From assembly GCA_000004695.1 (NCBI GenBank), contig CH709168.1, positions 1-5,151 on the forward strand: a DNA stretch of 5,151 nucleotides. The letters run 5' to 3'. Origin of the DNA: Dictyostelium discoideum (lineage: Eukaryota). The position numbers and the translations under genes are program-made. Below are positions 1,681-5,151 of the stretch, one piece after another (within the stretch, counting starts at the first letter, position 1; every line of letters begins with the position of its first letter). A model generated the notes under the pieces. The model was not told the origin of the DNA. It did no database searches and saw only the letters and a list, made by a program, of their open reading frames with translations.

Positions 1681-1735
1681 GTTATTAGTCAATGACAAGT
1701 GGTTGGTGAAAGGTTTACAGGTGGAGTTGTATTGA

Positions 1736-1777
1736 CCACCATGACCTTAGTCAAGTAGCGCATTGTGTCACGTAATT
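1736..1777. repeat. Left arm of a 42-bp inverted repeat. The inner 30 bp (1748-1777) are perfect.
   Basis: tagtcaagtagcgcattgtgtcacgtaatt is the exact reverse complement of 1979-2008. The match extends to 40/42 identity over 1736-1777 versus 1979-2020. Confidence 0.9.
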
Positions 1778-1978
1778 GGGATAAGATCAACAGCATTAAC
1801 AGGCTGGCCTGCCTTTGATGAGGCGTTAGGTAACGAGTACACATTTTCAGAAGTGATGGTCAGGTTCATACTACGCTCCGTTCGCGTTTGAACTTCAGGC
1901 TTAACGCAGAAGGTATATATAACGATTCTATTCATTTGAACTACGGTATTGTTGATCTTAATCGTGGGCGTGTATCCG

Positions 1979-2020
1979 AATTACGTGACACAATGCGCTA
2001 CTTGACTAGGGTCATGTTGG
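1979..2020. repeat. Right arm of the 42-bp inverted repeat. It encloses a 201-bp core (1778-1978).
   Basis: aattacgtgacacaatgcgctacttgacta is the reverse complement of the left arm. The whole element spans 1736-2020 (285 bp). Confidence 0.9.
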
Positions 2021-2030
2021 CTTAATTGAA

Positions 2031-2059
2031 AGAGGGGATGTACTACATCCTCTTTTTTT
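2031..2059 (+). terminator. Rho-independent terminator-like hairpin followed by a T7 run.
   Basis: agaggggatg tacta catcctct followed by ttttttt. The stem is ~10 bp with one G bulge or G-U pair. No A-tract precedes it, so it is unidirectional on the + strand. Confidence 0.5.
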
Positions 2060-2095
2060 GATCTATTGATATGTAAAGTTTTACACAGTACCGGA

Positions 2096-2101
2096 TATAA
2101 T
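2096..2101 (+). promoter_or_regulatory. Perfect sigma70 -10 hexamer TATAAT. The -35 is weak: GTAAAG at 17 bp, or TTTACA at only 10 bp spacing.
   Basis: Hexamer read from the sequence. No convincing -35 is present, so this is speculative. Confidence 0.2.
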
Positions 2102-2136
2102 GTGTAGGGATAACCTCTCTGCATGCAAGTACTCCA

Positions 2137-2559
2137 AAAGATTAAAATTATTATGACGAAGATTAACACCCTCATTAAGGGTATGGCTTGACCAGAACAC
2201 ATGTTATCCCCTTATTTTTCTTTTAAGTCAATGGAGGAATGTCATGCCATGTAAATCTTTTGATTTTGGTAACTGTACAAAACGCACTGCAGCGGCCGAT
2301 AAAGCCAAGCGAGATGCTAATCCAATTCTTCGTACTCAGTTACTGAAGAAGATTCGTTAATGACTGATCGGCAAGCCAGCATCTCCAGAATGGTAGAACT
2401 GGATCTCTTGGTAGATCAGCATTAAAAGCCAAAAGACACAACTTAACCCAGAACATATTGCCATGATAATCGAACTGCTTGGTGAGGGTAATTGCAGAAA
2501 TGCTTAATATCGATAGATCAAAAATATTCCGTTATCGTAAAGAGAACGGTATCGTATAG
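2137..2559 (+). pseudogene. Decayed serine recombinase of the DNA invertase / resolvase family (Hin/Gin/Cin-like). It carries several frameshifts and stops, and the N-terminal catalytic Ser region is missing.
   Basis: Frame 0, 2157-2360: TRLTPSLRVWLDQNTCYPLIFLLSQWRNVMPCKSFDFGNCTKRTAAADKAKRD..., compare Gin [36 protein letters not shown]. Frame 1: NGRTGSLGRSALKAKRHNLTQ, compare NKGRIGGRPPKLTKAE. Frames 2 and 1: IIELLGEGNC / RVIAEMLNIDRSKIFRYRKENGIV*, the typical C-terminal HTH ending ...IA..L.IsRSTiYRY. The VW motif at 2181 to the C-terminal stop at 2559 is 378 nt; the equivalent distance in Gin is ~375 nt. The only intact piece is a 38-codon ORF at 2244-2360 with a GGAGG Shine-Dalgarno site at 2233-2237. 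Confidence 0.5.
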
Positions 2560-2562
2560 CTC

Positions 2563-2595
2563 AAAAAGACCAGCCAATAACACTGGTCTTTTTTG
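2563..2595 (+). terminator. Intrinsic terminator immediately after the invertase-remnant stop codon.
   Basis: aaaAGACCAG ccaataaca CTGGTCTttttt. A 7-9 bp stem, 9-nt loop and T5 tail, preceded by an A-run, so it could act on both strands. Confidence 0.6.
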
Positions 2596-2754
2596 TAATC
2601 ACCAAACAATGATATCCGTTGCAGTTTTCCTGGTAGGAACTCTAAGACAACCTAAGTTCAATCAGTAGGGGTTAACCAGACCTTTTGGTGAAGTGTTAGT
2701 ATTGACTGTAATAGCTATAGAGCTACGTGAAATTCGAATGGGTGTCACCCAATT

Positions 2755-2844
2755 GGAGAATTGTCCGAGTGGTTCAAGGTAACGGTCTTGAAAACCGTCG
2801 GGCGGGAAACCGCTCCTAGAGTTCGAATCTCTAATTCTCTGCCA
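2755..2844 (+). tRNA. tRNA-Ser, anticodon UGA, type II with a long variable arm and genomically encoded CCA.
   Basis: Acceptor GGAGAAT/ATTCTCT, then G and CCA. Anticodon stem ACGGT/ACCGT with loop CTTGAAA. Perfect T-arm TAGAG-TTCGAAT-CTCTA. GGTCTTGAAAACCG and GAGTTCGAATCTCT are near-identical to E. coli serT. Positions 1-72 form a G-U pair and 10-25 a U-U pair, both slightly unusual. Confidence 0.85.
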
Positions 2845-2975
2845 ATTAAGATCTAAAGAAATCGCTATACGGTCACGAACGGGGATCGATAAAAGCCTAA
2901 GAGTGAAAGCCTCTACCGTTCTCTCAAACAGGGTTCAGCACTCTGTCTATAACGTATAAAGGAAAAGGAAAGATA

Positions 2976-3263
2976 ATGGCTACTAAGATTTCAATTACCC
3001 GTGCATTGGCCACAGTTAAATCCATGTCCAACGGTCTGATGCTTATTTCACTAACTCGCGGTACTGATGAGTTCGCCCAAGAAGCTGGTTTCAATGATTC
3101 CGTTGGGGCGGTTTCTGATGCGATCAAAGAAAACTACCAGGGTTTACAAGATATCATTCGTGTGCATGAAGATATCCTTGCTAAAGTGATCTTGTCCAAC
3201 GATACTACGCTTATTACCGTAGCTGGCAAAGAATACTGTGTGGTGTATTCTTTGCCACGATAG
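2976..3263 (+). CDS. Hypothetical protein, 95 aa.
   Basis: ATG preceded by AAGGAAAAGGAAAG (Shine-Dalgarno-like). E. coli-like codon usage (CGT, GGT, CTG, AAA, GAA). No recognisable motif. Confidence 0.5.
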   Translation: MATKISITRALATVKSMSNGLMLISLTRGTDEFAQEAGFNDSVGAVSDAIKENYQGLQDIIRVHEDILAKVILSNDTTLITVAGKEYCVVYSLPR

Positions 3264-3270
3264 GGAATCG

Positions 3271-3543
3271 CTAATCTGGGAATTCATCACGACGCATTAC
3301 ATCAGAAGAGACGTTCTGAACAAACACGGTAATCTGTGCAATTAAGTAATTGCTTACAACAGCGAGTTCGTCTTTGGCAGCTTTCAGACCAAAGATAACC
3401 GACTCACCCGTAATACATTCTGCATCAGCAAAAGTCAATGCGGTAGCAATTATTTGTACGGCAGATGCACCATTATACTCCTCAAGTGACGAAACCACAG
3501 AGGCAGGGTTAACTTCAAGTTGGCCAATTTCAATAGCTGCCAT
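3271..3543 (-). CDS. Hypothetical protein, 90 aa, convergent with the previous ORF across a 7-bp gap.
   Basis: Coherent codon usage. The overlapping + strand ORF (3350-3631) is S/A/T-rich and low-complexity, so the minus frame is preferred. The ribosome binding site is weak. Confidence 0.4.
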   Translation of the reverse strand: MAAIEIGQLEVNPASVVSSLEEYNGASAVQIIATALTFADAECITGESVIFGLKAAKDELAVVSNYLIAQITVFVQNVSSDVMRRDEFPD

Positions 3544-3656
3544 AACTCTAGCCTATAACTCTTGTGCTTTTGTTTCGTTCATGGATGTACGCACAAAAAG
3601 CAAATTTAAATTTAATTTAAAGCGAATTTAAAGTCCTGTACAAAAGCAATTTTTAA

Positions 3657-3734
3657 GGTAATTTTAAAGGTAATTTTTAAGGTTACTTTAAAACCACCTT
3701 ATAAATTACCTTTATAATTACCTTAGAAATTAAC
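3657..3734. repeat. Array of a 12-bp motif, three direct copies followed by three inverted copies. Together with flanking AAAGCAATT half-sites it forms a ~110-bp imperfect palindrome (~3640-3752).
   Basis: Direct copies: GGTAATTTTAAA, GGTAATTTTTAA, GGTTACTTTAAA. Centre: aCCACC. Inverted copies: TTATAAATTACC, TTTATAATTACC, TTAGAAATTAAC. The latter are reverse complements of the same motif. Confidence 0.75.
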
Positions 3735-3828
3735 TTTTTAATTGCTTTAAAAGCGAGGTCCTGAGTTCGAAGCCGTTATTTAACGGATAAATTTTATAAA
3801 AATTTTTTTTGAATTTTTTGAAAATTTA

Positions 3829-3870
3829 CCAAAAGGGTAGTCTCATCAATCAAAGGGTAGTCTCATCAAC
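3829..3870. repeat. Two tandem 20-21 bp direct repeats (iteron-like).
   Basis: caAAAGGGTAGTCTCATCAAt immediately followed by cAAAGGGTAGTCTCATCAAc. A 7-bp inverted repeat TCATCAA...TTGATGA follows at 3864-3897. Confidence 0.8.
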
Positions 3871-3998
3871 CATTACACCATTTGATTGCTTTGATGATAA
3901 TTTAAAAATGATAGAATATTTTATCCCCATTTTTTTGATCTAAAATTAGATGTTTTTTATTAAAAACCTTAAATTTATATTTAAAGGAAATTTTAATT

Positions 3999-4042
3999 CA
4001 CTTTAAATCTACTTTAAATCAACTTTAAATCCTCTTTAAAAT
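3999..4042. repeat. Four tandem 10-12 bp units with a CTTTAAAT core, phased at the helical repeat.
   Basis: cactttaaat, ctactttaaat, caactttaaat, cctctttaaaat. Similar TATCTTAAAA(A)T units occur at 4075-4097. Confidence 0.7.
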
Positions 4043-4056
4043 TATTTTAAAATAAT
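4041..4056. repeat. 16-bp perfect palindrome ATTATTTTAAAATAAT.
   Basis: The sequence equals its own reverse complement. Confidence 0.85.
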
Positions 4057-4162
4057 TTTTAAAGGCATTTTTAAATATCTTAAAATTATCTTAAAAATTA
4101 CCTTGAAAATGAATTTTTTAAACCCGGCTTTAAATTCAATTTAATTCCAATTTAAATCAACT

Positions 4163-4184
4163 TTGCTTTAAATTTGCTTTAAAT
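4163..4184. repeat. Tandem duplication of the 11-mer TTGCTTTAAAT.
   Basis: ttgctttaaat followed directly by ttgctttaaat. Confidence 0.8.
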
Positions 4185-4249
4185 GTGGATTTTTCTGTGC
4201 TGCACATGCACATAATGCATTAGGCGAGAAACGCGATATTGTCAAAGCT

Positions 4250-4453
4250 TTGAAAGCCAACTACGAATCGATATCTCGTCACAACGGTAACTCCAATTTT
4301 GACCAGCGTGAAAATACCGCGCGCACCGAAGCATTCAACGGTACTAAGAAAGCCGATGAAGCTTCCATTGCTGTGTTCGTTAATCCAGTTATCGAACGTT
4401 ATCAGCCAGGCGTGCTGTATCCGCTGGAGATCAGCAAAGTAATCAAGCAGTAG
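4250..4453 (+). CDS. Hypothetical protein, TTG start per the ORF track. The frame is open from 4172 and resumes after the TAG at 4451 for 29 more codons, to 4543.
   Basis: E. coli-like codon usage (CTG, CGT, CCG, GGT). No ATG anywhere in frame from 4172. The TAG at 4451-4453 is followed in frame by EKEILDFEANIDYALTESTKIEIVDGVVV*. Confidence 0.4.
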   Translation: MKANYESISRHNGNSNFDQRENTARTEAFNGTKKADEASIAVFVNPVIERYQPGVLYPLEISKVIKQ

Positions 4454-4776
4454 GAAAAAGAGATTCTGGATTTCGAAGCCAACATTGATTACGCGTTAAC
4501 TGAATCTACCAAAATCGAAATTGTAGATGGTGTGGTAGTTTAATTAAATTAAAAAGCTTGTCTTCGTTTGACGAATAGTCGAACACCGCCCTTGGGAGGT
4601 TAAACCACCAGCTCACTATATACACGCTGTGGGTCGATGGTTCGAGTCATTTCTGTGGAAACACAGTAGCTCGGTCGGTTATAGCAATAGTCAAAACATT
4701 AAATAAATAACACCTAGCATGATCCAAATTACAGAATGTGGTATTCGATATCACCACGTCCGTAAGATTAGTATAT

Positions 4777-4807
4777 AGGATGGTTTTACCCCTCCTGGTT
4801 TTATTTT
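4777..4807 (+). terminator. Weak terminator-like hairpin followed by a T-rich tail.
   Basis: AGGATGG ttttacc CCTCCT ggttttatttt. The stem is imperfect and not associated with any upstream ORF. Confidence 0.2.
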
Positions 4808-5057
4808 GAGATGAATGTCCGTCATTAGGCACCCTTAATAGCGGAAGGCGGTGAATTGGAGACTTGGGACGTGGCTGAAAGTATGCCAGCAAATAACCGA
4901 CGCTTACACTTTGGTGTAAGTAAACCACAATCAACCGCGTAGCATCTAAAAATAAAAGAACAATGACAGAAGCACTTCCGATATTACGTGGTTGGGTGTT
5001 GTAGAAGTCTGACGGTCAACCCCGCCATCGGTCACCTATTAAGAGGATTAGTTTACC

Positions 5058-5151
5058 ATGGAAATTCCAAAAAGCTATGTGGCAACTGATTTTAAATATG
5101 TTAACAACCAACCTTATGTGCGTGGTCAGCGTGTATTAATAATAATGCCTA
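5058..5151 (+). CDS. 5' part of an ORF running off the window (MEIPKSYVATDFKYVNNQPYVRGQRVLIIMP...).
   Basis: ATG preceded by AAGAGGA ~11 nt upstream. The frame is open to the window end. Confidence 0.4.
   Translation, partial: MEIPKSYVATDFKYVNNQPYVRGQRVLIIMP

Follow-up and report, generated by a model that had tools for sequence, protein, structure and literature searches.

This study concerns a 5,151-nucleotide (nt) stretch of Dictyostelium discoideum DNA, contig CH709168.1 of the AX4 assembly GCA_000004695.1 (here called the window), and in particular an open reading frame (ORF) towards its right end that is split by a single TAG codon. Coordinates are those of the window, and directional features lie on the forward strand unless stated otherwise. 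The frame is directly preceded by a TAA at 4169-4171, is open from 4172, and runs through 93 sense codons to the TAG at 4451-4453 and then through 29 further codons to a TAA at 4541-4543, with no in-frame ATG, all of which had been reported in a preliminary description of the window and was reproduced by translation. That description had also named the TTG at 4250 as the sole candidate start and had seen no ATG, GTG or TTG beyond the TAG, both of which have to be corrected, as GTG codons are present in frame at 4373, 4412 and 4532, the last of these beyond the TAG, though only three codons before the stop. The 5′ end of the frame does lie within a tandem repeat, as had been proposed, namely an 11-nt unit (TTTGCTTTAAA) present in 2.1 copies at 4162-4184. 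The length of the frame is by itself unremarkable because stop-free runs of 90 codons or more occur 11 times in the same window, several of them plainly antisense to true coding sequence or spurious; it is the homology of the frame to the protein family phrog_1491 and to phage records that identifies it as a real coding remnant.

A search of the PHROGs profiles, with the TAG read as Gln, aligned positions 4181-4480 (from ALGEK…) to residues 106-207 of the 211 in the phrog_1491 profile (E = 6.7e-16). The first half of the same profile (residues 1-95) was matched by an intact-looking ORF further upstream, at 2976-3263 (E = 3.9e-16), which begins with an ATG at 2976 and whose homology fades between 3245 and 3262, its TAG at 3261 being incidental. 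When the two halves were joined, the resulting protein gave tblastn matches in 557 phage records, and 556 of these 557 cover at least 80% of the query at one place. Its closest phage relatives are the Agricanvirus jumbo phages of Erwinia (Ea35-70 gp199, 43% identity; 45% for the C-terminal half on its own), followed by Salmonella phage SA002 and the rV5-like Vequintavirinae, and all of the homologues found outside Dictyostelium are of phage or metagenomic origin. Since the homologues (Ea35-70 gp199 and gp269 of Escherichia phage 4MG were aligned) are uninterrupted over both the split junction and the TAG column, the frame represents the C-terminal half of a split gene, the N-terminal half being located approximately 950 bp upstream in another frame. 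Over the split site Ea35-70 reads …KEYTIVEALDFRNSLVEKKDTVEC…, aligned with …KEYTIVAALDARNGLSEKREIVKA… of a second Dictyostelium copy that is introduced below, while the TAG column holds Leu in Ea35-70, 4MG and P0123. The homologues thus do not end at the TAG, and the 29 codons downstream of it are conserved.

The extent of the two gene parts could be delimited from these alignments together with that to the second copy. The N-terminal part of the pseudogene occupies 2976-3245, and the C-terminal part 4203-4543, where the TAA at 4541-4543 is the original stop of the phage gene, the alignment ending where the phage homologues end. Only 4203-4543 of the frame is derived from the gene; the ten or so codons at its start (4172-4202) are part of a host element, repeat X (described below), and lie in the terminal inverted repeat of that element. 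This bears out the earlier suggestion that an AT-rich island had displaced the original N-terminus. Members of phrog_1491 are read in one uninterrupted frame of approximately 211-217 codons, and the window copy is not, being divided by some 950 bp into two frames, stopped by the TAG at 4451 and shortened by deletions of 21 nt and 9 nt; it is a pseudogene derived from this family and not a working member of it. Proteins of phrog_1491 are labelled either as hypothetical or as "tail fiber protein" in RefSeq and PHROGs. The latter label is unsupported, as searches of Pfam, NCBIfam and the PDB with the phrog_1491 protein returned no match and the gene lies among tRNA genes and not in a tail module.

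The surroundings of the pseudogene agree with such a phage origin. A tRNA-Ser(TGA) gene of the bacterial or phage type is located at 2755-2844 (predicted by ARAGORN; 48.6 bits with the Rfam tRNA model), 130 nt upstream of the gene, and is 76-84% identical to the tRNA-Ser genes of many phages. The homologues in Ea35-70 (gp199, YP_009004993.1), 4MG (gp269) and SA002 (MGA_205) likewise stand among tRNA genes, and these full-length members of the family share with the window a tRNA upstream and conserved non-coding DNA with a Y-RNA-like element downstream; in contrast to them, the window copy is split, truncated by a stop codon, reduced by deletions and situated inside a eukaryotic genome. The order of tRNA, phrog_1491 gene and conserved non-coding DNA is that of the tRNA regions of jumbo and rV5-like phages. 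The block of phage-derived DNA to which these features belong spans 1684-5151 and has a GC content of 37-46%; AT-rich repeat DNA of the host interrupts it at 3597-4202.

On its left, this block is bordered by fragments of the retrotransposon DIRS-1 at 625-1683, consisting of the 3′ part of a tyrosine recombinase gene together with the end of the right inverted terminal repeat (ITR; 625-1357) and of a 5′ ORF fragment (1358-1683). The recombinase of the window is 85-92% identical to many D. discoideum DIRS-1 recombinases, a frameshift-repaired query matches Dictyostelium DIRS-1 proteins only, and at the DNA level the fragments are 91-96% identical to DIRS-1 copies in two loci of another D. discoideum assembly. 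The three exons of the AX4 gene model DDB_G0294310 (P0012) map exactly onto 779-892, 924-1280 and 1415-1678.

That other assembly (GCA_054883475.1) contributed two loci to the present comparison, one in the terminal part of a 4.88-Mb contig (L004) and the other on a 61.8-kb contig (L005), and the joined phage-like protein returned one D. discoideum gene model at each of them. The whole window corresponds to L004 7026-12185 with 99.77% identity over 5160 aligned positions, the differences amounting to three mismatches and one 9-nt insertion or deletion. In L004 a complete DIRS-1 with 315-bp ITRs precedes the window copy, so that the phage-like block lies within a contig of 4.88 Mb and is flanked by DIRS-1, and the TAG is present there too, at 11476-11478.

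The second locus, L005, carries a further copy of the gene between DIRS-1 elements, which is 89-92% identical to the window copy (92% for the C-terminal half, L005 10204-10505) and from which the ancestry of the lesions can be read. At the position of the TAG this paralogue has TTG (10362-10364) in a 40-nt context that is otherwise identical, so the TAG of the window arose from a Leu codon by a T-to-A substitution. The paralogue is also continuous at the split site (…KEYTIVAALDARNGLSEKREIVKA…), and the approximately 950 bp between the two halves are therefore an insertion specific to the copy in the window. An in-frame deletion of 21 nt after 3017 distinguishes the window copy from L005, which keeps these nucleotides and thereby matches the phage length, and a deletion of 9 nt after 4504 is specific to AX4, L004 having retained the nine nucleotides and with them the phage length. 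The paralogue has lesions of its own, frameshifting deletions among them: it shows two internal deletions (one of 40 nt) and the loss of 7 nt near the 3′ end, and its stop codon is lost. Over the 113 codons that can be aligned, differences between the window copy and the paralogue fall on the first, second and third codon positions in the numbers 11, 11 and 8, and among the single changes 19 are nonsynonymous and four synonymous, giving a proportion of nonsynonymous differences (pN) of 0.072, a proportion of synonymous differences (pS) of 0.053 and a pN/pS of approximately 1.4. This is the substitution pattern of unconstrained, neutrally drifting DNA.

The DNA that separates the two halves of the gene is composed of two parts. 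The left part, at 3246-3596, is a fragment of foreign DNA (fragment B) with a GC content of 42% and, on the reverse strand, a 90-amino acid (aa) ORF (3271-3543) for which no match was found in Pfam, in PHROGs or, by tblastn, among the phage records. An exhaustive HMMER search with this ORF yielded low-complexity repeat proteins and a single meaningful relative, P0126, which is encoded on L006 and L007, two short contigs of the Logan collection derived from Dictyostelium reads in the Sequence Read Archive (SRR26869268 and SRR26869267, respectively; L007 is present in seven samples) that end in DIRS-1 terminal sequence. Three blocks of fragment B align to L006 1065-1465 with approximately 95% identity, and these blocks are set apart by a deletion of 243 bp and an insertion of 26 bp. 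The minus strand of L006 1-800 is in turn colinear with the C-terminus of gene 307 and with gene 306 (baseplate wedge; residues 6-82 and 249-382) of Erwinia phage AH06, in a decayed form with frameshifts, in-frame stops and an internal deletion of some 165 codons. Fragment B thus belongs, as a displaced scrap, to foreign DNA of this kind, and the remnants of AH06 genes 307 and 306 imply that a second Agricanvirus-like region, which in the phage is some 70 kb away from the first, has also been fossilised in Dictyostelium. Fragment B itself had no match to AH06 genes 305, 307, 308 or 309.

The right part of the insertion, repeat X (3597-4202), is AT-rich (GC content 14-24%) and has terminal inverted repeats as well as 11-12-nt tandem repeats and internal palindromes. 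In the window its left end is incomplete, but the right one is entire (…TTTTTCTGTGCTG at 4202). A further copy, colinear with that of the window and 81-94% identical to it, retains both ends (CAGC…GCTG) at L004 653-795 and 5519-6042; between its two parts sits a full-length DIRS-1, the ITRs of which are at 793-1106 and 5204-5518. Repeat X is therefore a Dictyostelium repeat. It can be described as a dispersed element of approximately 630 bp with CAGC…GCTG terminal inverted repeats that has, in L004, served as a target of DIRS-1 insertion. The left boundary of the insertion in the phage gene is ambiguous between 3245 and 3262. An intron or intein was considered for the approximately 950 bp and was rejected, since no Rfam intron model matched up to E = 1, the reverse ORF has no Pfam or PHROGs hit, and the insertion is made up of a host repeat and a displaced foreign fragment. 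Rfam hits resembling mir-548 at 3652-3727 are far below threshold and reflect the AT-rich palindrome only.

Taken together, these observations very probably reflect the horizontal acquisition of jumbo-phage DNA that has become resident, and has been duplicated, in DIRS-1 arrays and is decaying neutrally there, the TAG being one lesion among several. A stretch of the genome of a jumbo myovirus related to the Agricanvirus phages of Erwinia, carrying the tRNA-Ser gene, the phrog_1491-family gene, the Y-RNA-like element and the next gene, would have entered the nuclear genome of D. discoideum, lodged in an array of DIRS-1 retrotransposons, been duplicated there and then drifted without selection. 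D. discoideum is a bacterivore, and the DNA may have arrived with phage-infected bacterial prey; the direction of transfer, from phage to amoeba, this route and the order of the lesions are what we infer, whereas the comparisons directly demonstrate the homology, the split, the descent of the TAG from Leu, the identity of the host, the existence of a second copy and the neutral pattern of substitution. The five lesions of the window copy are the deletion of 21 nt after 3017, the insertion of a phage-derived scrap and an AT-rich inverted-repeat host element that parted codons 1-90 (2976-3245) from 4203-4543 and left them in different frames, the TTG-to-TAG substitution at 4451, the loss of 9 nt after 4504 in AX4 and many amino acid-changing substitutions. 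There would be no readthrough of the TAG, nor any need for it, as no protein would be made from the gene. The TAG is, by comparison of the two copies and the phage homologues, a recent and unselected change of TTG in one of two dead copies, thereby substantiating the notion of a nonsense pseudogene that the preliminary description had listed among its readings. As the DNA sits in a eukaryote, phage genetics is inapplicable to the present state of the frame.

Several points weigh against this interpretation. The best phage relatives have only 43% protein identity, and pattern scans of IMG/VR did not reveal a closer donor, while the metagenomes of the Joint Genome Institute gave only a relative with 29% identity. 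The estimate of pN/pS is based on 113 codons only. The independence of GCA_054883475.1 from the AX4 reference is assumed, the comparison is one of assembled contigs and not of raw reads, and the gene models over both loci come from a single annotated genome. The two assemblies end no more than 145 bp apart, immediately after the right end of the window, and the junction with host DNA on this side lies beyond both.

These assembly ends, just past the block, might also be taken to indicate that the phage-like DNA is a contaminant, derived from a phage of the food or cloning bacteria and fused to DIRS-1 in a chimeric clone or by misassembly, in which case the TAG would be an amber allele or natural variant of a real phage. 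The window is a small unplaced contig, and the block does have bacterial features in its tRNA-Ser gene, its GC content of 37-46% and its terminator-like hairpins at 2029-2058 and 2563-2596. We nevertheless regard such contamination as very unlikely. The same 5.1 kb lies within a 4.88-Mb contig of another assembly, and a paralogue that has diverged by 8-10% and bears other lesions lies between DIRS-1 copies on a different contig; the gene itself has been entered by an AT-rich host repeat that is a DIRS-1 target elsewhere. In separate sequencing runs, other pieces of phage-like DNA directly adjoin the ends of DIRS-1 (L007 in seven samples), and a split, frameshifted and neutrally drifting copy of a conserved gene is not what would be expected in a living phage. 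That the frame is a domesticated and spliced Dictyostelium gene, with introns that take out the insertion and with the TAG as the stop in use, is highly improbable as well. The automatic model P0121 (ACTFIT_003263, 230 aa) does stop at the TAG, with exons taken from 2976-3236, from part of 3350-3575 and from 4226-4450, but its middle "exon" is an antisense frame of fragment B that has no homologue, and it omits conserved residues on either side of the break as well as the 29 conserved C-terminal codons. The model of the paralogue, P0122, is entirely different and its locus is riddled with lesions, a pN/pS of about 1.4 is at odds with a functional protein, and GC content and codon style are unlike those of Dictyostelium genes.

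It is more improbable still, to the extent of being nearly negligible, that the TAG is decoded and the gene functional, whether through programmed readthrough, through a suppressor tRNA or through a TAG-recoded code of the kind found in some large phages. Amber alleles, supE-dependent genes and TAG-recoded genomes are known from phages, and the frame resembles these in having one in-frame TAG in a gene of phage type with conserved sequence beyond it; the jumbo phages of the donor lineage are, moreover, rich in tRNA genes. The frame differs from such genes in that the window has no suppressor tRNA, further recoded codons are absent and the gene around the TAG is not intact. The stop is not conserved, since the paralogue has TTG in its place and all homologues examined have Leu, and the gene holds a single in-frame TAG where many would be expected of a recoded genome. 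Programmed readthrough, which the preliminary description had entertained, and the suppressor-dependent allele with a supE-type tRNA that it had likewise put forward both fail on this account. A search of the window found Ser(TGA) as its only tRNA and no suppressor tRNA with a CTA anticodon. The gene is, in addition, split into two frames by about 950 bp of unrelated DNA without an Rfam intron match, has suffered further deletions and has accumulated substitutions in a neutral manner, and Dictyostelium uses the standard genetic code.

Neutral decay of acquired phage DNA leaves the TAG by itself unimportant, as a random lesion in dead DNA that calls neither for resequencing nor for a suppressor search. 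A nonsense codon in a pseudogene is ordinary, and it is the phage DNA fossilised in DIRS-1 arrays that is noteworthy. Fossils of foreign DNA are well known from eukaryotic nuclei in the form of Wolbachia-to-host inserts and of mitochondrial and plastid insertions (NUMTs and NUPTs), and the DNA of the window is like these in being integrated, duplicated, invaded by transposons and in neutral decay to pseudogenes, while it differs from them in its donor, a lytic-type jumbo bacteriophage, its recipient, a bacterivorous amoeba, and its site, a DIRS-1 array. It would accordingly provide a concrete and datable case of DNA from a prey's virus entering a phagotrophic eukaryote by the "you are what you eat" route. 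DIRS-1 arrays form the centromeres of Dictyostelium, the published description of which lists four tRNA genes (three of them pseudogenes) and a few small repeats that are unexplained, besides elements of the types DIRS, DDT, Tdd and Skipper, and does not mention phage DNA (PMC2665215). A literature search of incomplete coverage turned up no account of phage DNA in these centromeres. At least one tRNA-like gene within a DIRS-1 array would thus be of phage origin. With regard to annotation, the AX4 contig should be kept and not dropped as contamination, whereas the gene models ACTFIT_003263 and ACTFIT_001947 are artefacts that should be flagged as pseudogenes. Both "hypothetical proteins", at L004 10001-11478 and L005 10001-10484, respectively, were stitched together by the gene finder from fragments of the phage pseudogene.

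The window, L005 and the L006/L007 fragments all lie near the same DIRS-1 terminal sequence, which phage-like DNA abuts directly in L005 and in L006/L007 and from which it is separated in the window by the 326-bp DIRS-1 ORF fragment. Because this terminal sequence is shared by the three fragments, the DIRS-1 tyrosine recombinase or a circular intermediate may be the vehicle by which phage DNA is fixed and spread in the centromeric arrays. We put forward only as a speculative and rather unlikely extension that much of the genome of an Agricanvirus-like jumbo phage, comprising at least two regions (that of the tRNA, the phrog_1491 gene and the Y-RNA-like element, and that of the baseplate wedge, approximately 70 kb apart), was taken up by D. 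discoideum and was captured and amplified by DIRS-1 in this manner.

The DNA downstream of the pseudogene is non-coding in the phages and is conserved in the window at 4548-4700. Positions 4548-4686 are 71% identical to non-coding DNA of Ea35-70 (L001 4660-4811, L001 being the region of this phage that was compared), and 4803-4956 are 76-85% identical, in two blocks (4803-4901 and 4924-4956), to non-coding DNA that directly precedes the next gene of SA002. Approximately 45 nt at 4548-4592 (ATTAAAAAGCTTGTCTTCGTTTGACGAATAGTCGAACACCGCC) are nearly identical to Ea35-70. The DNA at 4548-4592 and 4803-4956 is far better conserved with the phages than is the adjacent protein, and these stretches may have a regulatory role in jumbo phages or correspond to RNA elements there. 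The conserved DNA at 4548-4700 includes, at 4628-4689, a decayed remnant of a YrlA-like tRNA mimic. The Ea35-70 counterpart of window positions 4640-4700 resembles the tRNA-like core of YrlA, with a T-arm, an acceptor-like stem and a D-arm in permuted order, and scored 44.5 bits (E = 9.5e-9) against the Rfam model YrlA (RF02553) at L001 4753-4816 (phage positions 166,668-166,731), a match that spans model positions 23-87 only and stays under the gathering score of 69. The Dictyostelium copy reaches 14 bits, a drop that would be a further sign of decay. The Y-RNA-like element downstream of the phrog_1491 gene is unannotated in living jumbo phages.

With regard to the broader comparison of the locus with phage sequences, a megablast search of the whole window against 50,697 phage records returned no match, and an exact 32-mer from the window was absent from IMG/VR. 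The ORF starting at 5058 did not match the downstream gene of SA002 or of Ea35-70. An ORF at L005 10588-10773 resembles the N-terminus of a phage tail fibre, but gave no tblastn hit, and look-ups of the exact products of two intact small ORFs and of P0012 found no match.

A number of smaller features were also noted. The DIRS-1 tyrosine recombinase of the window is frameshifted at 955-965 (…SQVCPVR, followed by LATYLRASKGRRK…), where intact copies read CPVRHLATYLRASK, and the AX4 gene model DDB_G0294310 masks this frameshift with an intron. To the left of DIRS-1, positions 1-624 are AT-rich, contain an N-rich ORF of 152 aa (3-461) and are 94% identical, on the opposite strand, to L005 15616-14978; this counterpart lies within a 509-aa gene model without a Pfam hit and represents another unclassified Dictyostelium repeat. 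Within repeat X, GCGAGGTCCTGAGTTCGAAGCC (3753-3785) is similar to the T-arm of a tRNA, 18 nt of it sharing 78% identity with the T-arm of the tRNA-Ser gene (2819-2836), which may be due to chance or indicate a tRNA-derived fragment. In the left part of the phage-derived block, the remnant of a helix-turn-helix gene (…PEHIAMIIELLGEG and, up to its stop, VIAEMLNIDRSKIFRYRKENGIV) is readable at 2447-2560 only with a frameshift and gave a weak Pfam match to HTH_29 (E = 0.0019); one of the two terminator-like hairpins, that at 2563-2596, follows this remnant. Other small ORFs of the block also look broken, with frameshifts and stop codons of mixed type. Where the block begins on the left, with a GC content of approximately 46%, a 48-nt inverted repeat (1736-1783 and 1973-2020; 94% complementary) that had no match in the phage records encloses 189 nt; it could form a hairpin or mark the two ends of a small mobile element.

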